Below, piece by piece: positions 3,753 to 51,545 of a stretch of 64,000 nt of DNA; within the stretch, counting starts at the first letter, position 1, and the number at the start of each line of letters is the position of its first letter. The notes beneath the pieces are model-generated. The model made no database searches. It was not told the origin of the DNA and saw only the letters and a list, made by a program, of their open reading frames with translations. The stretch is from Candidatus Rokuibacteriota bacterium (GTDB taxonomy: Bacteria > Methylomirabilota > Methylomirabilia > Rokubacteriales > CSP1-6): positions 87,831 through 151,830 of the forward strand of contig QHSP01000016.1 of assembly GCA_003220495.1 (NCBI GenBank). The letters are read 5' to 3'. The position numbers and the translations under genes were made by a program.

Positions 3753-3804
3753 GTGCGCGCCGCAGGCCGTCGCGGGGCTGGGGCCCCGCCGGCCGAGGCG
3801 CGGC
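3753..3804. repeat. GC-rich palindromic intergenic repeat, copy A (REP-like)
   Basis: gtgcgcgccgcaggccgtcgcggggctggggccccgccggccgaggcgcgg. Near-identical copies at 15357, 31772 (reverse complement) and 48155. Imperfect 40-bp palindrome centred on GGGGCCCC. Confidence 0.5.
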
Positions 3805-3844
3805 TATGACGAATGCACGTTTCTAGCACGCCGGCCAGCACGAA

Positions 3845-4696
3845 TCAACGCGCGGGGGCCGGCAGCCGGTAGATCGCGGTGTGGAGCACGTGGGCGATCG
3901 GGCGGCGCTCGCCGGCGACCAGGACCAGGTCCGCCTCCACGAACTCGCGGCCCTTCTTCTCGAAGAGCGAGCGCACCTTGCCGCGGGTCGACAACGTCTC
4001 GCCGACCTTCGCGCCGCCGAGGTGGCGCACGACGCTTCCGGCGTGGATCCACGGGCTCATGCGGACGTTCTGCGAGAGCGCCTTGTTGGCCTGGTCGAGG
4101 AAGAACCCGGGATGGACCCAGCCGCGCGCGCCGCGATAGATCGAGAGACCGTCGCTGACGCGCTCGAGATATTCGGCGGCGCGCTCGTCGTCGTACGGAT
4201 TGATGGGCGTGCCGAGCGCGCTGAGGCCGGCGAGGTGGTCGCGCGTCGCGAGCGGGCGGTCGGCCGGTAGCGGCGCCGCCGGGTACCGGGCCAGGTTCAC
4301 CGGGACCGGCGAGCCGGCCGGCAGGGTGGCGATCAACGTCGCGCACTCGCCGCCGACGGCGGTCGTTGCCGTGACCGTCGCGGTGAGACCCTTGCGGTCG
4401 CGCGAGGTCACCACACCGGCCAGCCGAACCTCTTCGCCGTCGTGGATGGGCTTGCGGAATCGGGCGTTCGCGGTCCCGCGCTCGAGCCAGGCGGCGCCGA
4501 ACGCCTCGACCAGCGGATGGGTCAGGTACGCGTAGACGGTCACGCCGGGCACGAGCGCGCCGCGAAAGCCGTACTGACGCGCGATCTGCTCGTCGTGGAT
4601 CTTGTTCTCGGAGCTCGAGGACGTGTTGCGAGCCTTGACGTGATACTCGGGCAGGCGCTCCTGGCTATCCGTATCGGCCTCCTTCGTCGACGGCAC
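3845..4696 (-). CDS. MaoC-like (R)-specific enoyl-CoA hydratase/dehydratase, double hotdog fold
   Basis: 283-aa ORF containing a MaoC/hotdog dehydratase region (GALVPGVTVYAYLTHPLVEAFG...). GTG start. The N-terminal ~40 aa are low complexity, so the true start may lie further in. Confidence 0.78.
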   Translation of the reverse strand: MPSTKEADTDSQERLPEYHVKARNTSSSSENKIHDEQIARQYGFRGALVPGVTVYAYLTHPLVEAFGAAWLERGTANARFRKPIHDGEEVRLAGVVTSRDRKGLTATVTATTAVGGECATLIATLPAGSPVPVNLARYPAAPLPADRPLATRDHLAGLSALGTPINPYDDERAAEYLERVSDGLSIYRGARGWVHPGFFLDQANKALSQNVRMSPWIHAGSVVRHLGGAKVGETLSTRGKVRSLFEKKGREFVEADLVLVAGERRPIAHVLHTAIYRLPAPAR

Positions 4697-4720
4697 GGCC
4701 GCCGCCCCAGGTCCGGCAAG

Positions 4721-4728
4721 TATATAAT
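4721..4728 (+). promoter_or_regulatory. Candidate -10 element (TATATAAT) for lemA
   Basis: A perfect TATAAT at 4723-4728 in an otherwise GC-rich spacer, about 10 nt upstream of the lemA ATG. No good -35. It implies a very short leader. Confidence 0.3.
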
Positions 4729-4738
4729 CAACGCGGTC

Positions 4739-5335
4739 ATGTCGCGCGGGCTCCTCATCCCCTTGGTCGTAATCGCCCTACTGGTCATCGGCGTCGGCGC
4801 GTGGGCAGTCTCGATCAACAACCAGCTGGTCGTCCTCGACCAGAACGTCGGCGAGAAGTGGGCGCAGGTGCAGAACGTCTATCAGCGCCGCGCCGACCTC
4901 ATTCCGAATCTCGTCGAGACGGTGAAGGGCTTTGCGGCGCAGGAGCGCACGGTGCTGGAGGAGGTCACGCGCGCGCGGGCGAGCGCCTCCTCGATCCAGC
5001 TCACGCCCGAGGCGCTCAACGACCCCAAGGCGCTCGAGCGGTTCCAGGCCGCGCAGAACCAGCTCTCGGGCGCGCTCTCGCGGCTGCTGGTCACGGTCGA
5101 ACGCTACCCCGAGCTCAAGTCGAACCAGAACTTCCTGGCGCTGCAGAGCCAGCTCGAAGGCACCGAGAACCGGATCACCGTCGAGCGCCGTAACTTCAAT
5201 CAGGCGGTCCGCGACTACAACACGCGCCTGCGGCTCTTCCCGGGCTCGGCGGTCGCGCGCTTCTCGGGCTATCAACCCAAGGCGTTCTTCGAGGCGGCGC
5301 CCGACGCGGCGACCGTCCCCAAGGTGAAGTTCTAG
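4739..5335 (+). CDS. lemA: LemA family protein
   Basis: MSRGLLIPLVVIALLVIGVGAWAVSINNQLVVLDQNVGEKWAQVQNVYQRRADLIPNLV... Single N-terminal transmembrane helix followed by a LemA domain. ATG at 4739. Confidence 0.88.
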   Translation: MSRGLLIPLVVIALLVIGVGAWAVSINNQLVVLDQNVGEKWAQVQNVYQRRADLIPNLVETVKGFAAQERTVLEEVTRARASASSIQLTPEALNDPKALERFQAAQNQLSGALSRLLVTVERYPELKSNQNFLALQSQLEGTENRITVERRNFNQAVRDYNTRLRLFPGSAVARFSGYQPKAFFEAAPDAATVPKVKF

Positions 5336-12714: not shown

Positions 12715-13239
12715 CTAGCAGGCGCGCTCGGGAACCCAGTAGGGCTGGTAGTAACCCCAGGTGTACCCGCGCGGCTCGTAGTGCCCCTCGACCCACAGGG
12801 CGTCGTAGTTGTAGTAGCCCGGGACCCACACGTTCGAGACGTAGCTCTGAGGCACCCAGGCGTAGGCCCAATAGCCGGGGACGACACAGATCTGCGGCGC
12901 GGCGAGATACACCGGCTGCGTGATCACGACGACCGGCACCGGTGAACGGTGGACGATGTTCGGCTGCTGCCGCGGGTCGAGATTCTGCTGTCGTCGGTCG
13001 AGATTCTGCTGCCGTGGGTCGGGATACTGCTGCCGTGGGTCGGGATACTGCTGCCGCGGATCGGGATACTGCTGCCGCGGGTCGCGCGCGATGTCGCCCC
13101 GGAACATCGCGTTCTGCGGGAACTGGCCCGGCGGGATGTCGCCGCCGCTATTGACCGTGATCTTCACACCGGTTGCGCCGGCGCCGCCCGGAATTCCGGC
13201 AACCAGGACGGCCAGCAGCAGGACGGCTACGCTCTTCAC
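12715..13239 (-). CDS. Secreted repeat protein: signal peptide, DPRQQYP heptad tandem repeats, and a C-terminal aromatic WVPGYY-type (YXWGXW-like) repeat region
   Basis: VKSVAVLLLAVLVAGIPGGAGA is a signal peptide. This is followed by PRQQYPD three times and PRQQNLD twice, then ...YWAYAWVPQSYVSNVWVPGYYNYDALWVEGHYEPRGYTWGYYQPYWVPERAC. GTG start. Confidence 0.7.
   Translation of the reverse strand: MKSVAVLLLAVLVAGIPGGAGATGVKITVNSGGDIPPGQFPQNAMFRGDIARDPRQQYPDPRQQYPDPRQQYPDPRQQNLDRRQQNLDPRQQPNIVHRSPVPVVVITQPVYLAAPQICVVPGYWAYAWVPQSYVSNVWVPGYYNYDALWVEGHYEPRGYTWGYYQPYWVPERAC
12955..13084. repeat. 21-bp tandem repeat, about 6 copies, in-frame coding
   Basis: The units gtcgagattctgctgtcgtcg, gtcgagattctgctgccgtgg, gtcgggatactgctgccgtgg, gtcgggatactgctgccgcgg and atcgggatactgctgccgcgg encode the DPRQQYP repeats on the minus strand. 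Confidence 0.85.
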
Positions 13240-15248: not shown

Positions 15249-15310
15249 GGCTCGTAGGCCTCCGACGCTAGCAGGACCGGCCGGTCTCGTCCAGGGTGGT
15301 TGGCCGAGTC

Positions 15311-15345
15311 AATCTAAATCAAGTATAATCAATATTGATCAACTG
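15311..15345. promoter_or_regulatory. AT-rich island with overlapping palindromes and ATCAA direct repeats; candidate promoter or operator
   Basis: aatctaaatcaagtataatcaatattgatcaactg. TATAAT lies at 15324-15329. Perfect palindromes ATCAATATTGAT (15328-15339) and TTGATCAA (15335-15342), and four ATCAA repeats. It lies between the divergent HTH gene and citrate synthase. Confidence 0.45.
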
Positions 15346-15356
15346 ACGCAGTGGTC

Positions 15357-15408
15357 GTGCGCGCTGCAGGCCGTCGCGGGGCCGGGGCCCCGCCGGCCGA
15401 GGCGCGCT
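15357..15408. repeat. GC-rich palindromic intergenic repeat, copy B
   Basis: gtgcgcgctgcaggccgtcgcggggccggggccccgccggccgaggcgcgc. It directly precedes the citrate synthase ribosome-binding site (aaggagg). Confidence 0.5.
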
Positions 15409-15426
15409 CCAATCAAGGAGGCGACG

Positions 15427-16620
15427 ATGGAGACGGCGTGGAAGGCGGGGCTCGAGGACGTCATCGCGGCGCGGTCGGGGATCTGTCAGGTCGATGGCGA
15501 GCGCGGGAGGCTCTACTACCGGGGCTACGAGATCGCCGAGCTCGCCGGCGCGCTCTCGTTCGAGGACGTGACGGCGCTCCTCTGGCGCGGCGAGCTACCC
15601 TCCGCCGCCGAGTCCGCGGCGTTCGTCTCGCGGCTCGAGGCGGCGCGCGGGCTCCCTCCGGCCGTCGGCGACCTGCTCCAGACCCTGCCGCGCGACGCGC
15701 ACCCGCTCGACGCCCTTCGCACCGCTGTCTCGCTCGCCGCGACGCGTGATCCAGACGTGCGCTCGAACGAGCCCGAGGCCAATCTGCGCAAGGCGGTTCG
15801 CCTCATGACCCTGGTGCCGGAGACGGTGGCCGCCTGGCAGCGGATCCGCACCGGCCGGGCGCCCGTGACGGCGCCGGGCGCCGCATCGCACGCGGCCTAC
15901 TTCCTGGAGCTCCTGGAGGGAAGGGCGCCGTCGCGCGAGGTCGCACGGGTTCTGGACCTGGTGCTGACCCTGCACGCCGACCACGAGCTCAACGCCTCGA
16001 CGTTCGCGGTGCGGGTCGGCGTCGCGACCCTCACCGACCTGCACGCGGCCATCGCGGCGGCGGTCGCGACCCTGAAAGGGCCGCGCCACGGCGGCGCCAA
16101 CGAGGACGTGCTGGCAATGCTCCTCGAGATCGGCGAGCCCGCGCGCGCCGAGAGCTACGTCGAGGCGCGCCTCGGGGCGCGGTCCGGGCTGTCCAAGCAC
16201 GAGCGTAGCGACCCGCGCGTGCGGGTGCCCGGCTTCGGTCATCGCGTCTACAAGGTGGACGACGCGCGGGCGCGCGTGCTTCGCGGCATGGCCAAGTCGA
16301 TGGCGGAAGCGACCGGCCGGCAGAAGCTCTTCGAGGTGGCCGAGCGCGTCTACGACGCGATGCGCGCCCGGACGGCCTTGCCGGTGAACGTCGACTTCTT
16401 CTCGGCCGTGGTCTACGACGCGCTCGGCATCCCGCCGGATTTCTGCACCTCGATCTTCGCGGTCGGACGGGTCGCGGGCTGGTGCGCCCACGCGCTCGAG
16501 CAGTACGCCGACAATCGACTCATCAGGCCGCGCGCCGACTACATCGGCGCGGCGCCCCGGCCGCTCGTCGATCAGCGGCGGAGGATGGAGACCTCCATGG
16601 CGTCGTCGCCGAAGTCGTAG
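15427..16620 (+). CDS. Citrate synthase family protein (citrate or 2-methylcitrate synthase)
   Basis: METAWKAGLEDVIAARSGICQVDGERGRLYYRGYEIAEL...GPRHGGANE...HRVYK... carries the citrate synthase catalytic motifs. AAGGAGG ribosome-binding site 6 nt upstream of the ATG. Confidence 0.88.
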   Translation: METAWKAGLEDVIAARSGICQVDGERGRLYYRGYEIAELAGALSFEDVTALLWRGELPSAAESAAFVSRLEAARGLPPAVGDLLQTLPRDAHPLDALRTAVSLAATRDPDVRSNEPEANLRKAVRLMTLVPETVAAWQRIRTGRAPVTAPGAASHAAYFLELLEGRAPSREVARVLDLVLTLHADHELNASTFAVRVGVATLTDLHAAIAAAVATLKGPRHGGANEDVLAMLLEIGEPARAESYVEARLGARSGLSKHERSDPRVRVPGFGHRVYKVDDARARVLRGMAKSMAEATGRQKLFEVAERVYDAMRARTALPVNVDFFSAVVYDALGIPPDFCTSIFAVGRVAGWCAHALEQYADNRLIRPRADYIGAAPRPLVDQRRRMETSMASSPKS

Positions 16621-22125: not shown

Positions 22126-23940
22126 ATGGCTCCGAACGCTGAAGACTTGGCCAAGCGCCTGGCAGCACTGAGCGAACGATTCACGACTCTCGCGGCAACG
22201 CTCGCTCAGGCCACTCAACAGGTCCAGGCCGGGACCGTCCCGTCCGAGACCGTCATCGACGAAATCACCAAGATACGCACAGACTTCGTCGAGGTCCGCC
22301 AACGCGTGCTGGAGGCGGCTCGCTCGCTCTCGATCACCGTGCCGGCAATCTCGGAAGTCGACAGTGTCCGGGCGCTCGAGCCAATGCTCGAGACCGTCAT
22401 GCAGGCCGTGGCGAACCAGGAGAAGAGGGCGGCCCTGGCGGAAGCGCGCACCCGGGTCATGGCGCTGCTGGACCGGATACTGACGGTCACACACTCCGAC
22501 GGTCCGAACTTCGCCGCGCTGGTCCAGTGTCTGATCAAGGCCAGGGATATACGGCAGGCAGCCCAGGATCCCAAGGCGTTTGATTCTGAGGACGCCCCGG
22601 CCTTTCTCAACAGCATTCCGGCGTTTGCCGCCTTGCTCTCGATCATCGAGGGGCGCGACGCCCTCGACGACGACAAGTTCGCTGTCCTGGACGAGCAGGT
22701 GACCCAAGCCTTCGGAAGGACCCTGGCCGTCGCGGCGGCTCGCGGCAAGCTCACCGTCGGCGCAGGCTCCGCGCCGGTGGTGGACCGGACGGCCCCGCCC
22801 GCACCGAAGGAGCCGGTAGCTCGGACCGCGGCGGCTGCGGCGGCGCGCGCTCCGGCGCCGGTGCTCACGCCCAACCCGGCTCCCGTCGCGCCGGCGGCTC
22901 CCTCGCGAAACATCATCATCACGGAGCCGCGCGAGCCCGTCCAGCCCCGCGAGCCTGCCCAGCCGCGTGAGCCCGTTCTGGTGCCCGAGACCGCCCCGCC
23001 ACGCGAAGCCGCGCCGCCACGCGAAGCCGCCCAGCCACGCGAAGCCGCCCAGCCGGCCGACCAGGGAACTCAAGACGAGGCGGCGCAGTGGTGGGTTTCG
23101 GCGTGGGCGCGCTGGACGCAGTGGAAGGGCACGCTCGCCTTCAACGACGCCGTGAAGGAAGAGCTCGGCAAGTACAACTACGTCCTCAGCGTGCCGATCC
23201 AGCGGAGCACGGACTACGAGGAAGGCCTTCTCTCGTACGGCTACTCGATCCTCCTCGATCACATCGAGCACCGGTTCTCCGGCTTCGTCAACAAGGCGCT
23301 GAACAGCCTCAAGACGTTCCAGCCGGGCGCCGCGGGCGCGCAGAAGTCGGTCGGCGCCCACCTCTACAACGTCCTCGTGAGCGAGGGGCGGCTGCAGGAG
23401 ATCTATCCCGAGTTCGTCAAGAGCGTGCTCCTCGCTGCCGTGCCCGAGCCCGGGCTCTGGACCCACGCGCGGATTCTGGAGTCGACCACCGAGACGCGGA
23501 TCTTCACGCATCCGAGCAATCGCATCGGCGATCCCGAGCACAATTCGCAGCGGCTCACCCAGGAGCGGCAGCGGTTCGCCGACCATCGCTTCCCGGTTGT
23601 CGTGGCGCCGATCACCGCTCGCTTCTTCGCGATCGCCGCCGACTTGCGTGAGCCGCGGTCCATCGACGTGAAGCTCGTGGACGGGCGCAGCGACTCCGAT
23701 CACGCATGGCTCTTGACGATGCCGCCCGTCGGACGAGCCGACCTGAAGTCCGAGGTGCTGCGGCTCTTCCCGGAGGGAACCTCGGTGCCGGGGCTGGGAC
23801 GGGACTACGCGACCTTGTGGGTGGCGGTGTTCAACCCGGATCCGAGCGTGGAGAAGAAGTACGAGCTGACCTTGAGCCTCAAGCAGTCGGCCGCGACCAA
23901 GCAATCAGCCGGGACCTTCCGCTCGGCGCGGAGCGCCTGA
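22126..23940 (+). CDS. Large hypothetical protein (604 aa): helical N-terminal region, Ala/Pro-rich linker with PREP(V/A)Q tandem repeats, C-terminal Trp-rich domain of about 300 aa; no recognisable family
   Basis: Long ORF. The antisense frame is an obvious high-GC artefact (R/G-rich). The protein has a balanced composition outside the linker. I found no similarity to any family I know. Confidence 0.75.
   Translation: MAPNAEDLAKRLAALSERFTTLAATLAQATQQVQAGTVPSETVIDEITKIRTDFVEVRQRVLEAARSLSITVPAISEVDSVRALEPMLETVMQAVANQEKRAALAEARTRVMALLDRILTVTHSDGPNFAALVQCLIKARDIRQAAQDPKAFDSEDAPAFLNSIPAFAALLSIIEGRDALDDDKFAVLDEQVTQAFGRTLAVAAARGKLTVGAGSAPVVDRTAPPAPKEPVARTAAAAAARAPAPVLTPNPAPVAPAAPSRNIIITEPREPVQPREPAQPREPVLVPETAPPREAAPPREAAQPREAAQPADQGTQDEAAQWWVSAWARWTQWKGTLAFNDAVKEELGKYNYVLSVPIQRSTDYEEGLLSYGYSILLDHIEHRFSGFVNKALNSLKTFQPGAAGAQKSVGAHLYNVLVSEGRLQEIYPEFVKSVLLAAVPEPGLWTHARILESTTETRIFTHPSNRIGDPEHNSQRLTQERQRFADHRFPVVVAPITARFFAIAADLREPRSIDVKLVDGRSDSDHAWLLTMPPVGRADLKSEVLRLFPEGTSVPGLGRDYATLWVAVFNPDPSVEKKYELTLSLKQSAATKQSAGTFRSARSA
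22924..23060. repeat. 18-bp tandem repeats encoding PREPVQ/PREPAQ/PREAAP/PREAAQ
   Basis: ccacgcgaagccgcccag occurs twice in perfect tandem. It is preceded by ccacgcgaagccgcgccg and by diverged units ccccgcgagcctgcccag and ccgcgtgagcccgttctg. Confidence 0.7.
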
Positions 23941-31761: not shown

Positions 31762-31771
31762 TCCCGTTCAG

Positions 31772-31825
31772 AGGCGCACCTCGGCCGGCGGGGCCCCAGC
31801 CCCGCGACGGCCTGCCGTGCGCGCC
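31772..31825. repeat. GC-rich palindromic intergenic repeat, copy C (opposite orientation)
   Basis: aggcgcacctcggccggcggggccccagccccgcgacggcctgccgtgcgcgcc is the reverse complement of copy A (about 90% identity). Confidence 0.5.
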
Positions 31826-31911
31826 GCCGCCCTCCGAAACAATTCGGTCGCCGGGTCCGTCCAATTGGCCAGAGGGGAAGGAGCGGTTGGCCCCCTCAGG
31901 AGGGACCGACA

Positions 31912-32313
31912 ATGAAAAAGACCATTATTTTCGCGAGCTTGTTGGCGCTACTCATCCCCGGCACTGCGTTCGCGGGTTCTTCGACCGACGCGGCGCTCGG
32001 GCTCGGCGCCTTCGCCGTCTTCAACCAGATCATCTCCGGGACCGGCGTCTTCGGCGTGTTCGCGCCGGCGCCTCGACCGGTCTACCTGCCGGCACCTCCG
32101 CCGCCCGTGGCGCCGCCGGTGGTCGTGCAGCCGCAGTACTACCCGGTCTACGTGCCGGCGCCGGTCTACCACGCGCCGGTTCACTATCGGCCCGTCTACC
32201 GCGCGCCGGCGCGCGTGGTCGTGATCGAGAAGCGCGTCGTCGTCGCACCGCGCCACGGCTTCATCCCGCCCGGCCACACCCGTAACGGCCACCCGGGCCG
32301 CGGCTGGCGTTAG
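31912..32313 (+). CDS. Small secreted Pro/Val/Tyr/His-rich protein (signal peptide)
   Basis: MKKTIIFASLLALLIPGTAFA is a textbook signal peptide. GGAGGG ribosome-binding site. The mature part contains PVY/PAP repeats and several His residues. Confidence 0.7.
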   Translation: MKKTIIFASLLALLIPGTAFAGSSTDAALGLGAFAVFNQIISGTGVFGVFAPAPRPVYLPAPPPPVAPPVVVQPQYYPVYVPAPVYHAPVHYRPVYRAPARVVVIEKRVVVAPRHGFIPPGHTRNGHPGRGWR

Positions 32314-33055: not shown

Positions 33056-33801
33056 CGGGTGGCTCCCAGATAGGTCTGCTGCACCCGGGTATTGGTGCGA
33101 ATCTCCTCCGGCGTTCCATCCGCGAGCACCTGGCCCTGGTGGAGCACGGTGATCCGGTCGGAGATCCCCATCACCACCTTCATCTTGTGCTCGACCAGCA
33201 CCACCGTGCGCCCGGTCGCGAGCTCGCGAATGAGCCGCATCGTGGCGTCGGTCTCCTCCGGGCTCATGCCCGCGGTCGGCTCGTCGAGCAATAACAAGAT
33301 CGGATCGGACGCGAGCGCGATGCCGAGCTCGAGATGTCGCTTCTCGCCGTGCGAGAGGTGCGCGGCGAGCAAGTTGGTCTTGGTCCCGAGCCCGACGGAC
33401 GTCAGGATGGCGACCGCACGGTCCCTCACCTCCGTGAGGTGATCGGCGCGCGACCAGAAGTTGAAGGACCGCGCGTAGCCCTGCACCGCGACGCGCACGT
33501 TCTCGAGCACGCTCAGATGCGGGAAGACGTTCGTGATCTGATACGACTTGGCGATGCCGAGCCGCGCAGTCGCGTGCTGCGGCACCCCCGTGATGTCGGC
33601 GCCGTTGAACCAGATGCGGCCCGAGGTCGGCATCGTCTCGCCGGAGATCAGGCGAAAGAAGGTGGTCTTGCCGGCGCCGTTGGGCCCGATGATCGAGCGC
33701 AGCTCGCCGCGCTGGACGCTCACGTCCACGTCCGACACCGCCAGCAAGCTGCCGTACGCGCGCGTGAGGCGCTCGGTGCGCAGCAGGACGGCGTCGGGCA
33801 T
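33052..33801 (-). CDS. ABC transporter ATP-binding protein (LivG type)
   Basis: [47 protein letters not shown]... The start was chosen at the internal ATG (33799-33801 complement); the ORF in the track extends 23 codons further upstream. Confidence 0.82.
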
Positions 33802-33868
33802 AGCGCGAGATAGCACGCGGGCTTTTGCCGTGTCAAGGCGCCGAGCTGTGCTATCGTGCCGCGCGGAC

Positions 33869-34825
33869 ATGACCCCTCACGTGGTGCCGCAGCGCTGGAA
33901 GAGCGGGATGATCGAAATCGGAGCCAAGATCTTTGCCTACGTGCAGGCCTCGGGGATCGATCCGACCGGGGACACCGGCGTCGCCAACTCCGGGTTGATC
34001 ATCGGGCCTTCGGCGGCGGTCGCGGTGGACGCGTTGATGGTTCCGTCGATGACGAAACGGCTCGTGACGGCCATCAAGAAGACGACGCGCAAGCCGGTCG
34101 CCCAGCTCATCAACACGCACCATCACCTCGACCACACCGGCGGCAACCGGTTCTTCCGCGGCGCGACGATCGTCGCGACCGAGAAGTGCCGCGCGGCGCT
34201 CGCTCCGGGGTTTCCGCCGGTGGATCTGCTGCAGCGGTTCATGCCCAAGTTCGCCGCGGAGTTCCCGAAGCTCCGGGTGGCCCTGCCGACGGTGACCTTC
34301 GAGGACCGGATGGTCCTGTACGACGGCGAGCGAGAGATCCAGCTCTGGCACCCGGGCTTCGCCGCGCACACCGTCGGAGACGCCACCGCCTACCTGCCGA
34401 AAGAACGGATCCTGTTCGCGGGTGACATCGCGTTCCTCTACGTCACGCCCCTGGCCTTTCAGGGCCACGTCGGCAACTGGATCAAGGCCGCCGACCGTCT
34501 GCTGCGCTTCGACGCCGACGTGATCGTGCCGGGCCACGGACCCATCGGCACCAAGAAAGACTTGAAGCACATGCGCGACTACCTCGCGCTGGTGCGCCGC
34601 GAGGCAAAGCAGCGGTTCGACGCCGGCATGCCGGCGGAGGCGGCGGCCGCCGACATCAAGCTCGGCGTGTACGCGTCGTGGAGCGACCCCGAGCGGATCT
34701 TGCCGAACGTGATGCGCTGCTACCAGGAATTCCGCGACGAGCTGGATCGGCCGATGGATCTGCCGCGGATGCTCGCGGGGATGGAACGGCTGCGCGGGGC
34801 GGCGTCGCCCCACGCGTGCGTCTAG
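33869..34825 (+). CDS. MBL fold metallo-hydrolase
   Basis: ...AQLINTHHHLDHTGGN... is the HxHxDH motif; GDIAFLY and VPGHGP lie downstream. Confidence 0.85.
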   Translation: MTPHVVPQRWKSGMIEIGAKIFAYVQASGIDPTGDTGVANSGLIIGPSAAVAVDALMVPSMTKRLVTAIKKTTRKPVAQLINTHHHLDHTGGNRFFRGATIVATEKCRAALAPGFPPVDLLQRFMPKFAAEFPKLRVALPTVTFEDRMVLYDGEREIQLWHPGFAAHTVGDATAYLPKERILFAGDIAFLYVTPLAFQGHVGNWIKAADRLLRFDADVIVPGHGPIGTKKDLKHMRDYLALVRREAKQRFDAGMPAEAAAADIKLGVYASWSDPERILPNVMRCYQEFRDELDRPMDLPRMLAGMERLRGAASPHACV

Positions 34826-35847
34826 CGCCGGCCGGACAGCTCCTTGCGCACCAGCGCGGCGCCGGCGGCCAGCGCCGCGAGCTTCTGGTTACACATGTAG
34901 CGGGGCGACCAGCCGAAGCCGCAGTCGGGATTCACGGTCAGCTTCTCCGCGGGGCACACCTGGAGCACGCGCCGGATCCGCGACGCCACCTCGTCGACGG
35001 TGTCCTGGTTGAACCCTTTCACGTCGATCACGCCCGCGCCGAGCTCGCGTCCCTCGCCGTAGCGCTTCCAGAGATCGACCTCGCTGAGCTCGCGGCCGGC
35101 GAACTCGAGCACGAACTGGTCGGCGTGCGCCTTGAGGAGCCCGGGGAAGTACGCCTCGTACGAGCGGCTGAAGCGCGAGCGGCCGAAACGATTGCCGAAG
35201 CAGATGTGGAAGGCGAGCTTCACGTTGATGCCCGAGGTCGCCAGATTGAAGAGTCGGGCCATCTCTTCGCCGGAGACGTTGCCGCGGGCGGGCTCATCCA
35301 GCTGGATGAAGTCCGCGCCGGCCGCGACGAGCCCCCGGAGCTCGGCGTTGATGACCTCGGCGAAGCGCTCCGCGACGTCGACGACGCCCTTGTAGATCGT
35401 GCCCGGATGAATTCGCGAGCCGAATGTCAGCGGGCCGGCGCAGGTCGCCTTGGTGTGGCTCGCCGTATGCGATCGGAGGTACTCGAACTCCTTGACGATG
35501 CCGAGCCCTCCGCTCGGCGTCTCGATGCGGCCGACCGCCTCGTAGCGCGTCTGCTGATCGTAGCCCCACGGACCGGCCTTGCGGCGGACGGGCAGGGGCT
35601 CGATACCCTTGATGATCGCGTAGTACGAGTCGACGTACCCGTCCAGCCGGCGGACCTCGCCGTCGGTGATGATGTCGATGCCCGCCCTTTCCATGTCCCG
35701 GATGGCGGTGTTGGCGGCGTCGTCGAACATCTCCTCCATGTCGCCCGGGCCGAAGTCGCCCTGCTCGAGCGCCTTGACGGAGGCGAACCACCAGCTCGGT
35801 TTTCCGTGGGAGCCGACGACCGCGGTCGGGATCAAGGGCAGCGTCAT
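34822..35847 (-). CDS. Cobalamin-independent methionine synthase (MetE C-terminal domain)-like protein, URO-D/CIMS superfamily
   Basis: 341 aa; ...TDGEVRR...FIQLDEPA...HICFGN...PDCGFG... are MetE catalytic-domain hallmarks. ATGA overlap with the upstream livF-type gene. Confidence 0.8.
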   Translation of the reverse strand: MTLPLIPTAVVGSHGKPSWWFASVKALEQGDFGPGDMEEMFDDAANTAIRDMERAGIDIITDGEVRRLDGYVDSYYAIIKGIEPLPVRRKAGPWGYDQQTRYEAVGRIETPSGGLGIVKEFEYLRSHTASHTKATCAGPLTFGSRIHPGTIYKGVVDVAERFAEVINAELRGLVAAGADFIQLDEPARGNVSGEEMARLFNLATSGINVKLAFHICFGNRFGRSRFSRSYEAYFPGLLKAHADQFVLEFAGRELSEVDLWKRYGEGRELGAGVIDVKGFNQDTVDEVASRIRRVLQVCPAEKLTVNPDCGFGWSPRYMCNQKLAALAAGAALVRKELSGRR

Positions 35848-36554
35848 CGTGAACGTCCTCCGATTATCCGCGAAACGCTCGCGTCACGCCAGGCATCCTC
35901 CGGCCGGCCGCCGAAGATGATCTCGCCGCGCTCGATGACGTAGAGCCGGGTCGTGTATTCGGGCACGTGGTGGATGTTGGACTCGGCGATGAGGATCGCG
36001 CGGCCCAGGCCGGTGATCGTCGCGATGCCGGCGCTCACCGCGGGAATGATCGCGGGCGACAGGCCCTCGAACGGCTCGTCGAGGAGCAGCATCTCCGGGT
36101 CGAGCGCCAGCGCGCGCGCGATCGAGAGCATCTTGCGCTCGCCGCCGCTCATCTCGGGGCCCTTGCGCGCGGCGTAGCGGCGGAGCGCCGGAAAGACGTC
36201 GTACGCTTGCGCGATGCGCTCGGCGGCTGACCGGCCGCCCGGCCGCGTCCACGTCGCAATCTCGATGTTCTCGGCGACGGTGAGGTCCGAGAAGATGCCG
36301 GAGTCTTCCGGCGCCCAGCCGAGCCCCAGCCGGGCGATCTCGTGTGTGCGCCGACGGTGAATGGGTCGGCCGTGGAACTCGACCGCGCCGGCCCGCGGAC
36401 TGAGGTAGCCCATGACCGTCCTGAGGGTCGTCGTCTTGCCCGAGCCGTTGCGCCCCACGAGGCAGACCACCTCGCGCGCGCCGACCTCGAGTGACACGCC
36501 GCGCAGGATCTGACTGGTCTGGATGAAGACGTCGACCCCGGCCAGGCTCAGCAC
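35844..36554 (-). CDS. ABC transporter ATP-binding protein (LivF type)
   Basis: GRNGSGKTT, LSGGERKML, LLLDEP. Confidence 0.88.
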   Translation of the reverse strand: MLSLAGVDVFIQTSQILRGVSLEVGAREVVCLVGRNGSGKTTTLRTVMGYLSPRAGAVEFHGRPIHRRRTHEIARLGLGWAPEDSGIFSDLTVAENIEIATWTRPGGRSAAERIAQAYDVFPALRRYAARKGPEMSGGERKMLSIARALALDPEMLLLDEPFEGLSPAIIPAVSAGIATITGLGRAILIAESNIHHVPEYTTRLYVIERGEIIFGGRPEDAWRDASVSRIIGGRSR

Positions 36555-37321
36555 GAGGGCGTCCCCGGCGCGACGGCCTTGCGGCCGATGACGGTGTCCA
36601 TCACGCGCTGGTCAGCCAGGATCGTCGCCGGCGGCCCGTCGGCCAGGACCTTCCCCTGATGCAGCGCGATGATGCGGTCCGAGTACGCGAACACGATGTC
36701 CATGTCGTGCTCGACCTGGACGATGGCGCGAAGCCCGATTCGCCGCGACGCCGTCACCAGGGTGTCCATGATCGCGGTCTTGTCCGCCGTGCTCACTCCC
36801 GACGTCGGCTCGTCGAGCAGGATGATCTCCGGCCTCAGCGCGAACGCGGAGGCGATGTCCAGGAGCTTCTTGTCTCCCTGCGGCAGCTGCCGGGCCGGAG
36901 TGTGCCGCTTGTCGCCGAGCCCGAACAGTTCGGCGACCTCCAGCGCGTCCGACTGCACCTCGCGGTCCCGCGCGAGCGATGCGAAGAGCCGCGTCGCGCG
37001 TCCGAGCCGCGCCACGACGGCGGCCTGCAGGGTCTCGAGGACCGTGAGATCGGGAAAGACCTGGACGAGCTGAAACGAGCGGGCCATGCCGAGCCGGGCC
37101 AGGCGCACCGGGCCGGCGCCGCCGACCTCGCGGTCCTTGAACCGGACCTTGCCGGCGCTCGGCCGCGTGACGCCGGTGAGGATGTTGATCAGGGTCGACT
37201 TGCCGGCGCCGTTGGGCCCGACGATCGAGACGAACTCACCCGTGTCGACCGCGAGGCTCACGCCGTCGAGCGCGCAGAACTCTCCGTAGAGCTTCCGGAG
37301 CCCGTCGGCCTGGAGGATCAC
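36548..37321 (-). CDS. ABC transporter ATP-binding protein (LivG type)
   Basis: VILQADGLRKLYGEFCALDGVSLAVDTGEFVSIVGPNGAGKST... GTG at 37321 overlaps the livM-type stop (GTGA). The 398-aa ORF in the track is an extension. Confidence 0.85.
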   Translation of the reverse strand: MILQADGLRKLYGEFCALDGVSLAVDTGEFVSIVGPNGAGKSTLINILTGVTRPSAGKVRFKDREVGGAGPVRLARLGMARSFQLVQVFPDLTVLETLQAAVVARLGRATRLFASLARDREVQSDALEVAELFGLGDKRHTPARQLPQGDKKLLDIASAFALRPEIILLDEPTSGVSTADKTAIMDTLVTASRRIGLRAIVQVEHDMDIVFAYSDRIIALHQGKVLADGPPATILADQRVMDTVIGRKAVAPGTPSC

Positions 37322-38274
37322 GCGCGCCCCGCCGGCGCCGGCCGGCGGCGGGTCACGAGTCCGACGAGCCCGTCCGGCGCGAAGATCACGATCACGGCGA
37401 GCATCGCGCCGAAGACCAGCCGCCAGTAGGGCACGACGGACATCACCCAGCTCTGCAGATAGATGAACACGAAGGCCCCCACGACCGGACCGAAGAAGCT
37501 GGTGAACCCGCCGAGCAGGGTCATGAACACGATGTTGCCGGAGTGCGTCCAGTAGGCGAGGGTCGGATCGACGTTTCCAGTCGGCGGGCCCAGAAGGACG
37601 CCGCCGACGGCGGCGTAGATCGCGGAGATGACGAAGGCGTAAAAGCGATGGCGCGTGACCCCGATGCCGAGTGTCTCGGCCTTCGTGGGGTTGTCGCGAA
37701 TCGTCTTCAGGCAGAGACCGAACGGCGAGTGGACGATGCGCCACATGCCGAGCGCGGCGAGGCCGAGCACGGCCAGCGAGTAGTAGTAGTAGGGCCCGAC
37801 GAGGTAGTCGATCTTCGGCATGGCATCGAGGCTTCGCCCGAGCAGCGACGGCCGCAGGAAGGGCGTGCCCTCGTCGCCGCCGGTCAGGCGATAGAACTTC
37901 AGGACGAATGTGTAGAAGACCATCCCAAACGCCAGGGTGAGCATGCCAAAGTAGATCTTCACGTAGCGCACGCAGAGCGCCGCGACCGGTATCGCCACCA
38001 GCGCGCCCAGCACCGCGGCCGCGAGCAGGATCACCTCGAGCGAGCGGATCTTGGCGTGCGTCGTCAGGAACGCGCCGGTGTACGCGCCGAGCCCGATGAA
38101 GAGGGCGTGGCCGAACGAGACGAGGCCCGTGTACCCGAACAGGAGGTTGAGCCCGAGCAGCACGACCGCGTAGGCCATGAACGGGAGCATGAGGAGCACG
38201 TGATAGGTCGAGGCGACGAGGGGCGCTGCGGCGATGGCCGCGGCCCCCAGCGCGACCGCCAGGCCGCCCTTCAC
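37318..38274 (-). CDS. Branched-chain amino acid ABC transporter permease (LivM type)
   Basis: 318 aa; ...LLGLNLLFGYTGLVSFGHALFIGLGAY... Confidence 0.85.
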   Translation of the reverse strand: MKGGLAVALGAAAIAAAPLVASTYHVLLMLPFMAYAVVLLGLNLLFGYTGLVSFGHALFIGLGAYTGAFLTTHAKIRSLEVILLAAAVLGALVAIPVAALCVRYVKIYFGMLTLAFGMVFYTFVLKFYRLTGGDEGTPFLRPSLLGRSLDAMPKIDYLVGPYYYYSLAVLGLAALGMWRIVHSPFGLCLKTIRDNPTKAETLGIGVTRHRFYAFVISAIYAAVGGVLLGPPTGNVDPTLAYWTHSGNIVFMTLLGGFTSFFGPVVGAFVFIYLQSWVMSVVPYWRLVFGAMLAVIVIFAPDGLVGLVTRRRPAPAGRA

Positions 38275-47046: not shown

Positions 47047-48144
47047 TCACGGAATGCGCGCGAAGCCTTCCATCAGCCGGCGCGCCGTCCGATACACGGT
47101 GACGCGCTCGGCCCACGCGGCGCCGTCGCGCCGGCGCACCGCGGCGTCGATCGGCAGCACCCCGGACGGGTGGCCCAGCCGGATATCGTGCGCACCGTCG
47201 CCGACGCACTCGCGCACGACCGTACCGTCCACTCGCGCCGCCACCCCGAGGCACATCGCCACGGTGAGCGCGACCGCGCGGTGGCAGTTGCCCATCGAGA
47301 TCACGCGCGTCACCAGATCGACGCCGCCGGCGGGATGCCGGACGCCGTCGAGCGCCGTGAACGCGGTCGCCGGCGCGACCATCGCGATCTTCGGCACCGC
47401 GGCGCTGCCCTGGATGCCCATCCGCCGTGCCGCCTCGACGCGGATCGACTCGAGCCGCGCCGAGAGCGCGCGGTCGGCGTCGATCGCCTGCGGCGTCTCG
47501 GTGCCGGCGAGGCCCACGTCCTTCGCGCGGACGAAGACGACCGGATTCGTCGCGTCCACGAGCGAGGCGTCGATGCCGTCGATCGTCTCGCGCGCCGCGC
47601 CCGTCGGCAGCAGACGTCCGGTGCCGGCGCCGCCGGGATCCAAGAAGTCGAGCGCGATGCGCGCGCCGCGACCGGCCACGCCGGCCAGCTCGAAGTCGCC
47701 GTCGACCGCCGCCTCACCGTCGTGGACGGGCACGTGGGCGACGATGAGCTTCTTCGTGTTGGTGTTGTGGATACGGACGACCGTCTCGCCCTCGACCGCC
47801 TTCACCAGGCCTTCGTCGATCGCGAAGGGTCCAACGGACGACGAACAATTGCCACAGTTGCCCTTGTAGTCCACGATCGCCTTCGCCACCTCGACCTGCG
47901 CGAACGTGTAGTCGACGTCGGCGTCCGGGTGCGAAGGGGCGCCGATGATGCACGCCTTCGACAGCGACGAGATCCCGCCGCCCATGCCGTCGAGCTGGCG
48001 GCCGTAGGGGTCGGGGCTTCCGAGCGCCGCGAGCAGGACCCGATCGCGCGCGGCGCCGGCCGGTGGAAGATCCGCGTGGTGGAAGACGAGACAGCGGCTC
48101 GTGCCGCCCCGCATGTAGACCGCCCGGATCTTCTTCTGGCTCAT
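47047..48144 (-). CDS. prpF: PrpF family protein (2-methylaconitate cis-trans isomerase-like)
   Basis: MSQKKIRAVYMRGGTSRCLVFHHADLP... and the C-terminal ...MGNCHRAVALTVAMC... are co-linear with PrpF/AcnD-accessory proteins. GGGAGGA ribosome-binding site. Confidence 0.85.
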   Translation of the reverse strand: MSQKKIRAVYMRGGTSRCLVFHHADLPPAGAARDRVLLAALGSPDPYGRQLDGMGGGISSLSKACIIGAPSHPDADVDYTFAQVEVAKAIVDYKGNCGNCSSSVGPFAIDEGLVKAVEGETVVRIHNTNTKKLIVAHVPVHDGEAAVDGDFELAGVAGRGARIALDFLDPGGAGTGRLLPTGAARETIDGIDASLVDATNPVVFVRAKDVGLAGTETPQAIDADRALSARLESIRVEAARRMGIQGSAAVPKIAMVAPATAFTALDGVRHPAGGVDLVTRVISMGNCHRAVALTVAMCLGVAARVDGTVVRECVGDGAHDIRLGHPSGVLPIDAAVRRRDGAAWAERVTVYRTARRLMEGFARIP

Positions 48145-48154
48145 GGCTCCTCCC

Positions 48155-48208
48155 GAGGCGCGCCCCGGCCGGCGGGGCCCCAGCCCCGCGACGTCCGGCA
48201 GCGCGCAC
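48155..48208. repeat. GC-rich palindromic intergenic repeat, copy D
   Basis: gaggcgcgccccggccggcggggccccagccccgcgacgtccggcagcgcgcac fills the 69-nt gap between the aconitase-family stop and the prpF ribosome-binding site. Confidence 0.5.
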
Positions 48209-48213
48209 GTCCG

Positions 48214-50133
48214 TTACGCTCGCCCGGCCTTCGTGTGCGCCAGGATGCCGCCGGCCAGGAGAATCTCGCGCTCGCGCGCCGTCAGCACGCACGAGGCGGT
48301 GAACACGGCGCCCGTCCGGGCATTCTCCACGCGCACCCCCTCGCCGGCCTCCAGCGCGGCGCGGAGACCCGGCAGGCGCAGGCGGTCGTCTCGCTCGATG
48401 CCGCCGAAATCATCGGGATTGTCGAAAGCCAGCGGCACCACGCCCCAGTTGATCAGGTTCGTCCGGTGGATCCGCGCGAACGACTTCACGATGACGGCGC
48501 GGATGCCGAGGTACATCGGTCCGGTCGCGGCCGCCTCGCGCGACGATCCCTGACCATAGGTCTCACCCCCGACGATGATGCCGCGCCCGGCGGCCTTGGC
48601 GCGCGCCACGAAATCGGGGTCGACGTATTTGAAGCAGAACTCCGAGATCGCCGGGATGTTCGAGCGGAAGACCAGCACCGCGGAGCCGGCCGGGGAGATG
48701 TCGTCGGTCGACACCTTGTCGCCGAGCTTGATCACCACCGGCGCCTCGAGCGCCTCCGCCACCGGCTCGCCGAGCGGCACCGGCTTGATGTTCGGCCCAC
48801 GCGGAATCTCGCCGGTGCCGTCGGGCTCGACGAATCCCACCGTCGAGGTCGCGAAGCGTGCCGGCAAGGTGACCGGCGCCGGCGCGCCCAGGGTACGCGG
48901 ATCGGTGATGACGCCGGTGAGCGCCGAGGCCGCCGCGACGGTCGACGAGCAGAGATAGACGGAGTCGTCCTTCACGCCGCTCCGCCCGGGGAAGTTGCGG
49001 TTGAAGGCGCGGAGGCTCTTGGCGCCGGCGGCCGGAACGTGGCCGATACCGGCGCAGGCCCCGCAGCTCGACTCGGAGACCGTGGCGCCCGCGGCGATGA
49101 GGTCGGTGAGCACGCCTTCGCGCGCCATCGTCTCGAGAATCTTGTGGCTGCCCGGGAACAGCACGAAGGACACCGACGAATGCACGCGTCGGCCGCGCAC
49201 GATGTCGGCGACCGACGCCATGTCGTGCCACGAGCCGTTGGTGCACGAGCCGACCATCACCTGCTCGATCGCGGTCCCCGCGACCTCTTCGACGGGCACG
49301 ACGCGGTCGGGCGAGCCCGGCAGCGCCACGAGCGGCGTGAGCGCCGCGAGGTCGAGCTGGATCTCGTCGTCGTACGTTGCGTCGGCGTCGGGCGCGGCCG
49401 GCCGCCAGTCGTCGCCGCGGCCTAGCCGCGTCATGAACGAGCGCGTGACGTCATCGCTGGGAAAGACGCTGGTCGTCAATCCGAGCTCGGCTCCCATGTT
49501 GGCGATCGTCATGCGCTGGGTGGCCAGCAGGCTGCGAAGCCCGGGCCCGCCATACTCGAAGATCTTGCCCGTGCCGCCCCTGACGGTGAGCCGGCGCAGC
49601 AGCTCGAGGATCACGTCCTTCGCGGTCACCCACGGCTGGAGCGCGCCCGTGAGGTGAATGCGGACGACCTGCGGCATCTGGAAGAAGTACGGCCCGCCGC
49701 CGAGCGCGACCGCGACGTCGAGCCCACCGGCGCCGATCGCGAGCATGCCCGCCGCGCCGCAGAGCGGCGTGTGGCTGTCGGTGCCGAGCAGGGTCTGGCC
49801 CGGGATGGAAAAGCTCTCCATGTGCACCTGATGGCAGATGCCGTTGCCAGGCTTGGAGAAGACGGCCCCGTACTTGCGCGAGACGGCCTGCATGTAACGA
49901 TGGTCGTCGGAGTTCCGCGAGTCGACCTGGTAGACGTTGTGGTCGGCGTAGCTCACGATGCGGGCGGGCACGGCGCGCGGGAAGCCCATCGCCTCGAACT
50001 GGAGCCAGGACATCGTACCGTTGGTGTCGGTGAGGAGGACTTGATCGACCGAGATGCCGATCTCTTCGCCGGCGACTGCTTTGCCGGCGACGAGATGGCT
50101 GGTGATGAGCTTTTGCGTGAGGTTCTTGGGCAT
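48214..50133 (-). CDS. Aconitase family protein (aconitate or 2-methylcitrate dehydratase candidate)
   Basis: 639 aa; three Cys ligand regions (...GSCTNGS..., ...CGACAG...) and the C-terminal swivel domain. Confidence 0.88.
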   Translation of the reverse strand: MPKNLTQKLITSHLVAGKAVAGEEIGISVDQVLLTDTNGTMSWLQFEAMGFPRAVPARIVSYADHNVYQVDSRNSDDHRYMQAVSRKYGAVFSKPGNGICHQVHMESFSIPGQTLLGTDSHTPLCGAAGMLAIGAGGLDVAVALGGGPYFFQMPQVVRIHLTGALQPWVTAKDVILELLRRLTVRGGTGKIFEYGGPGLRSLLATQRMTIANMGAELGLTTSVFPSDDVTRSFMTRLGRGDDWRPAAPDADATYDDEIQLDLAALTPLVALPGSPDRVVPVEEVAGTAIEQVMVGSCTNGSWHDMASVADIVRGRRVHSSVSFVLFPGSHKILETMAREGVLTDLIAAGATVSESSCGACAGIGHVPAAGAKSLRAFNRNFPGRSGVKDDSVYLCSSTVAAASALTGVITDPRTLGAPAPVTLPARFATSTVGFVEPDGTGEIPRGPNIKPVPLGEPVAEALEAPVVIKLGDKVSTDDISPAGSAVLVFRSNIPAISEFCFKYVDPDFVARAKAAGRGIIVGGETYGQGSSREAAATGPMYLGIRAVIVKSFARIHRTNLINWGVVPLAFDNPDDFGGIERDDRLRLPGLRAALEAGEGVRVENARTGAVFTASCVLTAREREILLAGGILAHTKAGRA

Positions 50134-50147
50134 TTAGTTGGACTGGG

Positions 50148-50175
50148 GGGGAGCGAGCGCCGCTCCTCCCCCAGA
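50148..50175. other. G-run/C-run hairpin in the prpC-to-aconitase intergenic region
   Basis: gggggggagcg-agcgc-cgctcctccccc. About 11-bp stem with one bulge. Same architecture as the hairpin at 18825. Confidence 0.25.
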
Positions 50176-50305
50176 CCCCCCCATCGTTTCGAACCCGGTT
50201 GGCGGCGATGTCGGTGTCGGCGATGACGTCATTGGGGCTTGGCGCCGCTCAATACTTTTGAGCGGCCGGTTCGCAGGTGGTCTCGTCATCGCTTGGTTGT
50301 GTGTT

Positions 50306-51439
50306 TCAGCGCTTGTCCAGCGACGTGAAGGCGCGGCGAGAGGGGCCGATGTAGTCGCCTCGGGGACGGATCAGGCGGTTGTCGTCGCACTGCTCGATGA
50401 TGTTCGCGGTCCAGCCCGCGATGCGGCCGGCCGCGATCACCGGCGTGAAGAGATCCACGGGGATGCCGAGCGAGTAGAAGAGCGGCGCCGAGTAGAAGTC
50501 GACGTTGGGGATGAGCTTCTTGGCCTCGTTGATGCGCGCGTGGAGCTTGACGGCCATCTCGTACCACTTGAACTGGCCGGACTGGCGGCAGGCCTCTTCG
50601 GCCATCCCCTTGAGGATCGCGGCGCGCGGGTCGCCCGCCTTGTAGACGCGGTGCCCCATCCCCATGAATCGCCGCTTGTCCACCAGCGCCTTCTGGGTGA
50701 AGGCGTCCACGTTGGCGACCTCGCCGATCTCCATCAACGTCCGCATGACCGCCTCGCCGGCGCCGCCGTGGAGCGGCCCCTTCAGCGCGCCGACGCCCCC
50801 GGCCACCGCCGAGTGCATGTCGGACTGGGTCGAGACGATGCAACGGGTCGTGAAGGTCGACGCGTTGAGCTCGTGCTCGGCGTAGAGCGTCAGGCTCGCG
50901 TCGAACGCCTTCGCGACGACGCCGCTGGGTCGCTTGCCCGTCAGCATGTAGAGGAAGTTGGCGGCGTGCGAGAGATCGGAGGCCGGACGGATCGGCTCTT
51001 CGCCGCGCCGCACCCGATGGTGAGCGCAGATCGCCGTCGCCATCTGGCTCGTGAGCCGGATCGCCTTCCGGATATTCGCGGCGTGCGAGCTGTCGGTGGT
51101 GTCCCCGTCGCTCATGCCGAGGATCGCGACGGCGGCCTGGAGCACGCGCATCGGATCCGTCGCCTTCGGCATCAGCCTGAAGGCCTGGACGAGATCGGCC
51201 GGAATCTCGCGCGCCGCGATGAGCGCCAGGGTGGTCTTGTCGAGCTGCGACGCGTTCGGCAGATCGCCGTACCAGAGCAGGTGACACACGTCCTCGAAGC
51301 TCGCCCGGCGCGCCAGATCTTCGATGTCGTAGCCGCCGTAGGCCAGCCGGCCGTTCTTGCCGTCGAGATCACAGAGCTTGGTCTCGGCGGCGACGACGCC
51401 CTCGAGCCCCCGGATGAGCTGGCTGCCTTCCTTGTCCAT
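50306..51439 (-). CDS. Citrate synthase/2-methylcitrate synthase
   Basis: 377 aa; ...GPLHGGAGE...HRVYK...D.R... Confidence 0.88.
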   Translation of the reverse strand: MDKEGSQLIRGLEGVVAAETKLCDLDGKNGRLAYGGYDIEDLARRASFEDVCHLLWYGDLPNASQLDKTTLALIAAREIPADLVQAFRLMPKATDPMRVLQAAVAILGMSDGDTTDSSHAANIRKAIRLTSQMATAICAHHRVRRGEEPIRPASDLSHAANFLYMLTGKRPSGVVAKAFDASLTLYAEHELNASTFTTRCIVSTQSDMHSAVAGGVGALKGPLHGGAGEAVMRTLMEIGEVANVDAFTQKALVDKRRFMGMGHRVYKAGDPRAAILKGMAEEACRQSGQFKWYEMAVKLHARINEAKKLIPNVDFYSAPLFYSLGIPVDLFTPVIAAGRIAGWTANIIEQCDDNRLIRPRGDYIGPSRRAFTSLDKR

Positions 51440-51465
51440 GATCGGCTACCCCTCGAAGTTACGAT

Positions 51466-51545
51466 CACGCCCCGGCCGGCGGGGCCTGTCGTCTCGCTCG
51501 CCTCGGGCCCGGGGGCCCTAGCCCCCGGCTGGCCCTGCAGCTCGC
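51466..51545. repeat. Degenerate or composite copy E of the GC-rich palindromic repeat
   Basis: cacgccccggccggcggggcctg..., followed by the hairpin cccgggggccctagcccccgg and ctgcag...cttgcag inverted repeats. Confidence 0.3.

Follow-up and report, generated by a model that had tools for sequence, protein, structure and literature searches.

Repetitive extragenic palindromes (REPs) are defined as palindromes of 20–50 nt that are preceded by a conserved tetranucleotide, occur in high copy number and are mostly intergenic (PMC8266576). In E. coli, the transposase TnpAREP requires this 5′ tetranucleotide together with an irregularity in the stem, and cuts at a CT beside the hairpin (PMC8266576). 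Classical REPs are located mostly downstream of open reading frames (ORFs), in unidirectional and convergent spacers, and are arranged mostly as head-head or tail-tail dimers, head-to-tail dimers being rare (PMC3733652). Here, we examine a family of short GC-rich palindromes with copies A–E in a 64,000-nt stretch of DNA from a Candidatus Rokuibacteriota bacterium (contig QHSP01000016.1, positions 87,831–151,830, 69.5% G+C; hereafter the window). The family is dispersed, extragenic, gained and lost at orthologous sites, and strongly polar toward start codons. We consider it likely to be a lineage-specific REP-type repeat family of Candidatus Rokubacteria, with a predicted hairpin that would be transcribed just 5′ of ribosome-binding sites.

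Other small repeats share some of these features. The mycobacterial interspersed repetitive units (MIRUs) are head-to-tail units of 40–100 bp that sit inside operons, are oriented as the flanking genes and touch stop and start signals; they are not defined by a long perfect hairpin. The Rokubacteria family resembles them in its head-to-tail direct arrays, its gene-matched orientation and its contact with neighbouring stop/start signals, and differs in that its sequence is unrelated, its units are mostly single and its array period, 59–66 nt, is not a fixed multiple of three. The Correia/NEMIS elements of Neisseria (100–150 bp) carry terminal inverted repeats, duplicate a TA target and form long intergenic hairpins that are co-transcribed, can be processed and can alter expression of the downstream gene. 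As with these and other hairpins resembling miniature inverted-repeat transposable elements, the family consists of dispersed intergenic inverted-repeat elements; unlike them, it has a 61-nt unit, no target duplication seen and a polar orientation. The attC sites of integrons are likewise imperfect palindromes between co-directional ORFs, and act strand-specifically as a folded single strand. However, the ends of the present element, GNNGTGCGCGC ... GCGCGCCTATRAA in consensus, lack the R''/R' core sites (RYYYAAC/GTTRRRY), and its copies are scattered among ordinary metabolic operons with no cassette array.

The range of the family was established by searching one genome per species with an exact 24-mer core, which returned at least 112 DNA blocks in at least 22 species-level assemblies. 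Nearly all of these are labelled as Candidatus Rokubacteria, Rokuibacteriota or Methylomirabilota metagenome-assembled genomes (MAGs), with a few bins labelled Binatia, Gaiellaceae or 'uncultured'. The window was added for the downstream analysis of copies, and nhmmer counted 147 of them in the listed blocks and the window together. The preliminary description of this DNA, made from the window's letters, had proposed a REP-like family of GC-rich intergenic palindromes, and the 147 copies bear this out; the spread over so many blocks also answers its concern that the repeat might be unique to the window, that is, a local duplication. The retention of copies in related contigs likewise shows that they are neither an assembly artefact nor a local duplication. 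The family sequence is identical across the at least 22 assemblies, and filled orthologous sites keep the element identical though their flanks are only ~70–90% identical. Near-consensus copies were all that a covariance model found in 0.75 Mb of element-bearing blocks, and a single copy was found in 0.54 Mb of prpF neighbourhoods; a regular expression for the outer frame added one further member of the copy E type, in locus L090. Viral contigs gave zero matches to the element, on which ground a phage origin was rejected. Against Rfam 15, the window had no match at the gathering thresholds and the copy B region none at E ≤ 1.

The Rokubacteria, an abundant and uncultured group in soil, have large genomes, 8–17% of which is predicted to be non-coding, and the founding paper on the lineage reported many transposases and no such repeat (PMC5712423). 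Full-text literature searches on Rokubacteria returned no description of such repeats either. The family provides a sequence marker for the lineage and adds a REP-type family to a phylum not covered in the REP surveys compared here (PMC8266576, PMC3733652).

To delimit the unit, 137 copies were aligned on their invariant core and the information content was computed along the alignment. It stays at background through −4, rises at −3 and drops back to background after +57. Thus the unit is about 61 nt long, longer than the ~50 bp first estimated. It reads G(-3)-N-N-G(0)-T-GCGCGC-Y-GCA-GGCCG-TC-GCGGGGC-TGGG-GCCCCGC-CGGCC-GA-GGCGCGC-C-TATRAA, that is, a GNNG head beginning 3 nt before GTGCGCGC, a bulged T, a 49-nt imperfect palindrome and a CTATRAA tail. 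The palindrome comprises three stacked helices of 7, 5 and 7 pairs. The outer helix, GCGCGCY/GGCGCGC, is followed by an internal loop (GCA/GA) and the middle helix GGCCG/CGGCC, beyond which come a TC bulge, the inner helix GCGGGGC/GCCCCGC and a TGGG loop. In the head, the G at −3 and the G at 0 are each 91% conserved and the two middle bases are variable, the commonest tetranucleotides being GTAG (21 of 137 copies), GCAG (20) and GAAG (10). The CT at the 3′ foot is conserved at 71% for C and 69% for T, and the unpaired nucleotides (GCA, TC, TGGG and GA) are conserved as strongly as the paired ones.

The element had been expected to form extremely stable RNA hairpins. The predicted folds are indeed of about −37 to −44 kcal/mol, but this is only 0.7–2.3 standard deviations better than dinucleotide shuffles of the same composition. 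Since the energy barely beats the shuffles, the case for the hairpin rests on dyad symmetry and on paired variants. In the proposed structure 88.7% of cells are standard pairs, as opposed to 39–45% when the partners are slid. The pair C3-G49 is changed to T-A in six copies. An A at position 5 and an A at position 48 occur together in 18 copies and apart in only four, replacing two G-C pairs by a tandem G.A/A.G. A T at position 8, found in 57 copies, allows a G.U pair in the sense strand but not in its complement; outside this position, there are 32 G.U and 21 A.C pairs. Further variants come from two diverged members, copy E of the window and the one in L090, which retain the outer frame GTGCGAGCYGCAG...CGAGGCGAGC. 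In place of the GGCCG/CGGCC of the main family, the middle helices of the diverged members are GGGCC/GGCCC and GCACG/CGTGC, all of them complementary.

The position of the copies relative to genes was analysed with genes called by a codon-position GC caller. None of the 147 copies is intragenic, so that the other concern raised at the outset, copies lying mostly inside coding sequence, does not apply. Collapsing arrays leaves 129 sites, and merging orthologues reduces these to 123 independent ones. The 129 sites consist of 112 single copies, 16 dimers and one trimer; in each of the 17 arrays the units run head-to-tail at a period of 59–66 nt, and inverted pairs were absent among these sites. 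Copies on opposite strands never come closer than 390 nt to each other and are separated by ordinary genes.

At the 89 independent sites that could be classified, the 3′ tail is directed at the start of a gene on the same strand in 73 cases and at the end of one on the opposite strand in 16 (p = 7e-10). The same bias is seen within co-directional spacers, where 34 copies are sense and six antisense (p = 8e-6). Start codons peak 17–25 nt past the hairpin, in agreement with the early remark that the element usually abuts a ribosome-binding site, and upstream stop codons lie 1–25 nt before it. Convergent spacers are depleted, making up 7 of the 98 element-bearing spacers versus 89 of all 518 (17%; p = 0.007). 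No such depletion is seen for divergent spacers (22 of 98, versus 90 of 518 overall), and in 11 of 15 of them the element is nearer the gene that its 3′ end faces. The 'classic' REP position assigned to the copies in the preliminary description therefore does not hold: tails point at starts (73:16), convergent spacers are avoided and the only arrays are head-to-tail. Replication direction was rejected as the cause of orientation, because single 8-kb blocks hold opposite orientations, mostly matching the local gene direction. The genes downstream of 76 sense copies encode proteins of 119 Pfam families with no shared theme, and this heterogeneity excludes a riboswitch or a regulon operator.

The features in the window are as follows, where bits are scores of a covariance model built from 137 family members.

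3750–3810, plus strand: copy A, 82 bits; head GCAG, bulged T, hairpin 3755–3803, tail CTATGAC.
15300–15329, plus strand: promoter-like site upstream of copy B, TTGGCC-18-TATAAT; one site found, 0.0 expected.
15354–15414, plus strand: copy B, 77 bits; hairpin 15359–15407, degenerate tail TCCAATC.
31767–31827, minus strand: copy C, 71 bits; hairpin 31774–31822.
48151–48211, minus strand: copy D, 60 bits; hairpin 48158–48206, sense.
51469–51486, no strand assigned: possible half-copy remnant, CGGCCGGCGGGGCC, matching one arm of the core exactly, as seen by direct inspection of the letters.
51484–51553, minus strand: copy E, a diverged member, 38 bits; hairpin ~51495–51545, sense.

The four near-identical copies named at first, A–D, were recovered both by this model (60–82 bits) and by matches to a consensus 33-mer with 0–2 mismatches, at 3766–3798(+), 15370–15402(+), 31779–31811(-) and 48163–48195(-), where shuffled sequence gave an expectation of 0. 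A repeat finder pairs them at 88–96% identity across 49–60 nt. The fifth, degenerate copy also exists (E 2.7e-8), at 51484–51553(-) and not at the 51466–51545 reported earlier; beyond A–E, the model gave no signal above noise in the 64-kb window. Relative to their neighbours, B, D and E are sense and A and C antisense, and A, C, D and E lie between co-directional genes. The identities of the flanking genes of A–E were assigned by Pfam, which agrees with those first given.

Copy A is antisense to both of its minus-strand neighbours, a MaoC-like gene and an acyl-CoA dehydrogenase gene, the start codon of the latter being at 3734–3736. Its head side is 3 nt from the Shine-Dalgarno (SD) sequence GGAGG (3745–3749, minus). 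It is also present at the orthologous site of L084 (MAG AR27), a contig 87–89% identical to the window over 8 kb. Copy D, on the minus strand, fills the 69-nt spacer between an AcnD-like aconitase gene (stop 48214–48216) and prpF (ATG 48142–48144), and the SD GGGAGGAG (48147–48154) overlaps its tail position. Copies A, B and D had been said to end 3–6 nt before GGAGG. This needs revision for two of them, as the hairpin of B is 9 nt away and A is reversed, its 5′ head being the part that abuts the SD.

Copy B is sense and located in the 5′ leader of a plus-strand citrate synthase gene (SD 15417–15421, ATG 15427). The promoter-like site lies 28 nt 5′ of its hairpin, and the predicted transcript start is ~20 nt before the hairpin; with such a promoter upstream, copy B would belong to the 5′ leader. 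Promoters within the element itself were considered and rejected: a scan found no sigma-70 promoter inside it, and the TATRAA tail is too near the SD and the start codon to be a −10 box. As a separate observation, a perfect 12-nt AT palindrome, ATCAATATTGAT (15328–15339), overlaps the −10 box 5′ of copy B and the citrate synthase gene, against a genomic background of 69.5% GC; it has the appearance of an operator site for a dimeric regulator.

Copy E lies on the minus strand between an AlkZ-like gene and a PrpC-like citrate synthase gene (ATG 51437–51439). It retains the outer frame of the family, GTGCGAGCTGCAG...CGAGGCGAGC, and its middle (GGGCC/GGCCC) and inner (CCGGGGGC/GCCCCCGG) helices are compensatory. 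The stretch at 51469–51486, situated between copy E and the PrpC-like start, has a small hairpin of its own. The two citrate-synthase-family genes of the window, 15427–16620 (+) and 50306–51439 (-), are paralogues that share a 173-nt inverted match of 74%, and both are preceded by a sense family member, the standard copy B and the diverged copy E.

Copy C is antisense to its plus-strand neighbours, lying 10 nt past the stop of an acyl-CoA dehydrogenase gene (gene end 31761) and 85 nt before the ATG (31912) of a small secreted Pro-rich ORF. This ORF, 31912–32313 (+), has a clear signal peptide, MKKTIIFASLLALLIPGTAFA, a repetitive Pro/Val/Tyr-rich body and a coding-like codon GC profile (0.70/0.52/0.88), with no match in Pfam.

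Gain and loss of the element were followed by comparing blocks from flank to flank, which gave about ten filled/empty orthologous pairs. In the clearest of them (L011/L015, L019/L038, L086/L070 and L088/L037), the prior SD is kept directly after the tail. In L038, two adjacent genes overlap (TGATG); in L019, the last codons of the first of them hold the element, and a new TAG stop is provided by the inserted sequence. The 3′ boundary is sharp, right after CTATRAA, and the 5′ side sometimes has 15–30 extra nt. The filled/empty alignments show no consistent target-site duplication; there are isolated hints of one, GGAG in L118 and GGTAR in L088/L037, and other pairs show none. The SD was rejected as the insertion target since GGAG is missing among the common head tetranucleotides. 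At two 'empty' sites, L047 (~1454–1489) and L056 (~5085–5114), remnants of the outer arm and tail are still present (GCGCGCC|GGCGAGCCCCTGAAC; CGCGACTACGATGAAC). The interior has apparently been deleted there, which suggests hairpin-mediated internal deletion or imprecise excision.

The acnD-prpF junction that holds copy D was followed more widely. A PrpF search of metagenome contigs gave 80 orthologous loci, ~70 of them with a readable junction, and only one of these, L118 (93% PrpF identity), is filled, with its element placed just as copy D is. The junction is empty in the nearest of the remaining relatives (96% PrpF identity). Fourteen soil-metagenome contigs encode a PrpF identical to that of the window, and copy D is kept in all four that were read, which are independent and from the same population. 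With one filled junction in about 70, the element is a dispersed repeat that is gained and lost, not a conserved part of the prp operon. Other, unrelated repeats occupy this junction in distant relatives: they were found in L176, L184 and L192, ~130 nt before the prpF start, and in the same place in L145, L146, L151, L152, L165 and L168, the types being a palindrome, CCCTCTCCCC...GGGGAGAGGGTAGGGTGAGGGG, and repeated CAGGCCACCCACGG motifs. Small repeats of different kinds seem to land at this junction repeatedly.

Measured against the REP definition given above, the family is probably REP-type, though of its head tetranucleotide only the two flanking Gs are well conserved. Like the REPs of Enterobacteria, Pseudomonas and Stenotrophomonas (GTAG-tagged, SMAG), which are mobilised or processed by REP-associated tyrosine transposases (RAYT/TnpAREP), it is a short GC-rich imperfect palindrome with a stem irregularity, a G-flanked tetranucleotide before the palindrome and a CT at the 3′ foot, and it is dispersed at high copy number outside genes with presence/absence polymorphism. 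As with REPs, an adjacent TAG can act as the stop codon of the upstream gene, as it does in L019. The likeness stops short in several respects. The Rokubacteria head is only GNNG; inverted REP/iREP pairs, bacterial interspersed mosaic elements (BIMEs) and REPINs are lacking, with 17 of 17 arrays head-to-tail; the 3′ end points at start codons, and convergent spacers are depleted instead of favoured. In addition, no RAYT was found in 1.46 Mb of sampled loci. The start-codon polarity and the head-to-tail arrays thus contradict the usual picture of REPs as inverted pairs downstream of genes. If the polarity stems from insertion chemistry, it would bring new information on how such palindromes spread; if it stems from selection, the element would be a natural, portable insulator hairpin placed before ribosome-binding sites.

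In the mechanism that we propose, the element is non-autonomous and spreads today, or did so in the past, by way of a folded single strand, much like the REPs on which HUH/Y1 transposases act. Its 5′ foot carries a G-flanked tetranucleotide, its stem is bulged and its 3′ foot has a CT, all features of the sort on which E. coli TnpAREP relies. Because the genes are tightly packed and the spacers very short, insertions would survive only between a stop codon and an SD. The tight stop and start distances need no special cause, given that empty spacers are only a few bases long. Once co-transcribed, the element may fold into a hairpin of about −40 kcal/mol directly 5′ of the ribosome-binding site, where it could shield the upstream cistron from 3′-exonucleases and act as a 5′ structure for the downstream one. 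Its A/U-rich tail might leave the SD single-stranded, or offer an endonuclease site or a ribosome standby site.

Several observations weigh against this proposal. First, no RAYT/Y1 gene was found in the 1.46 Mb of sampled loci plus the window, using a regular expression for HUH/NPV motifs and phmmer with E. coli RayT (E ≤ 10); a sample of 1.46 Mb should contain only about one, assuming a few hundred copies and one REPtron per genome. Second, the head is only G-N-N-G, with GTAG and GCAG at ~15% each. Third, inverted (BIME/REPIN) pairs are missing and the copies are placed relative to genes in the opposite way to classical REPs. Fourth, covariation inside the main family is weak, as the copies are nearly identical, and the covariation test is constrained by the 24 core positions that the search pattern fixes. 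Fifth, in folding simulations the unpaired probability of the ribosome-binding site is 0.51 with the element in sense, 0.47 with it inverted and 0.51 with it deleted. On these values, RBS accessibility was rejected as the selective cause of the polarity, and the marginal gain means that a benefit at the RNA level alone does not explain the 5:1 ratio. The strong polarity requires that insertion chemistry or selection on the transcript be strand-specific. Either the chemistry of insertion is coupled to transcription and distinguishes the strands, or some other property of the RNA is under selection.

The alternative that survives best, unlikely as we hold it to be, is a domesticated module for the punctuation of expression, in which the hairpin and the A/U-rich tail are selected as an RNA element just ahead of ribosome-binding sites. 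Possible roles are binding or processing by an RNA-binding protein or RNase, stabilisation of the 5′ end and insulation of translation, with mobility being secondary or extinct. The polarity toward start codons fits such a role, as do the unpaired nucleotides conserved as well as the paired ones, the identity over at least 22 assemblies and at orthologous sites with diverged flanks, the sense-only G.U pair at position 8 in 57 copies and the conservation of an A/T-rich tail in a genome of 69.5% GC. On the other hand, most orthologous junctions do without the element, the downstream genes share no function, and the tandem arrays and half-copy remnants resemble the dynamics of a repeat, not those of tuned regulation. 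Furthermore, predicted RBS accessibility equals that after deletion, and outside position 8 G.U pairs barely exceed A.C pairs (32 and 21).

A more specific version, in which the element would be more than selfish DNA and which we would put forward as a doubtful conjecture, is a phylum-specific, strand-polar punctuation module whose folded single strand is read by a dedicated protein and which uncouples the stability and translation of neighbouring cistrons. That protein would be a new HUH-type enzyme acting on DNA, or an RNA-binding or processing factor acting on mRNA. If true, such recognition would explain the 5:1 polarity as well as the sequence identity over at least 22 species.

We regard as improbable a third possibility, that the element is an intrinsic or partial terminator, or an attenuator, of the upstream gene in an organism tolerating poor U-tracts. 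Its attractions are a stable GC-rich hairpin, the sense orientation that puts CUAURAA after the stem, and an upstream stop codon often 1–25 nt before the hairpin. However, the scan of copies A–D returned no terminator-like site, the tail consensus being CTATRAA with no T-run, and the partial-terminator role first suggested for the element is not supported. Moreover, the copies are depleted in convergent spacers, exactly where terminators are expected, occur in divergent spacers and in 5′ leaders that lack an upstream gene to terminate, and sit inside operons such as acnD-prpF directly before the SD. Finally, a double-stranded site for a nucleoid-associated protein, gyrase, IHF (as at the BIMEs of E. 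coli) or a global regulator would suit a long palindrome that is conserved even at non-paired positions and lies near promoters and start sites, but is very improbable, because a symmetric site should ignore orientation whereas the polarity is 5:1, the linked A5/A48 breaks the dyad symmetry of the duplex while keeping a tandem G.A in the folded single strand, subfamily members swap helix sequences in compensatory fashion, and the downstream genes are unrelated.

Returning to the window, two further groups of repeats were noted. A 21-nt tandem repeat of at least five units, CTGCTGCCGYGGGTCGRGATW, spans 12964–13089, and a run of 18-nt repeats spans 22925–23050; both are probably coding repeats. 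On the minus strand, 32345–33870 and 35844–37744 hold two paralogous gene pairs resembling ATPases of ATP-binding cassette transporters, which account for the direct repeat families D1, D3 and D4 (60–80% identity).

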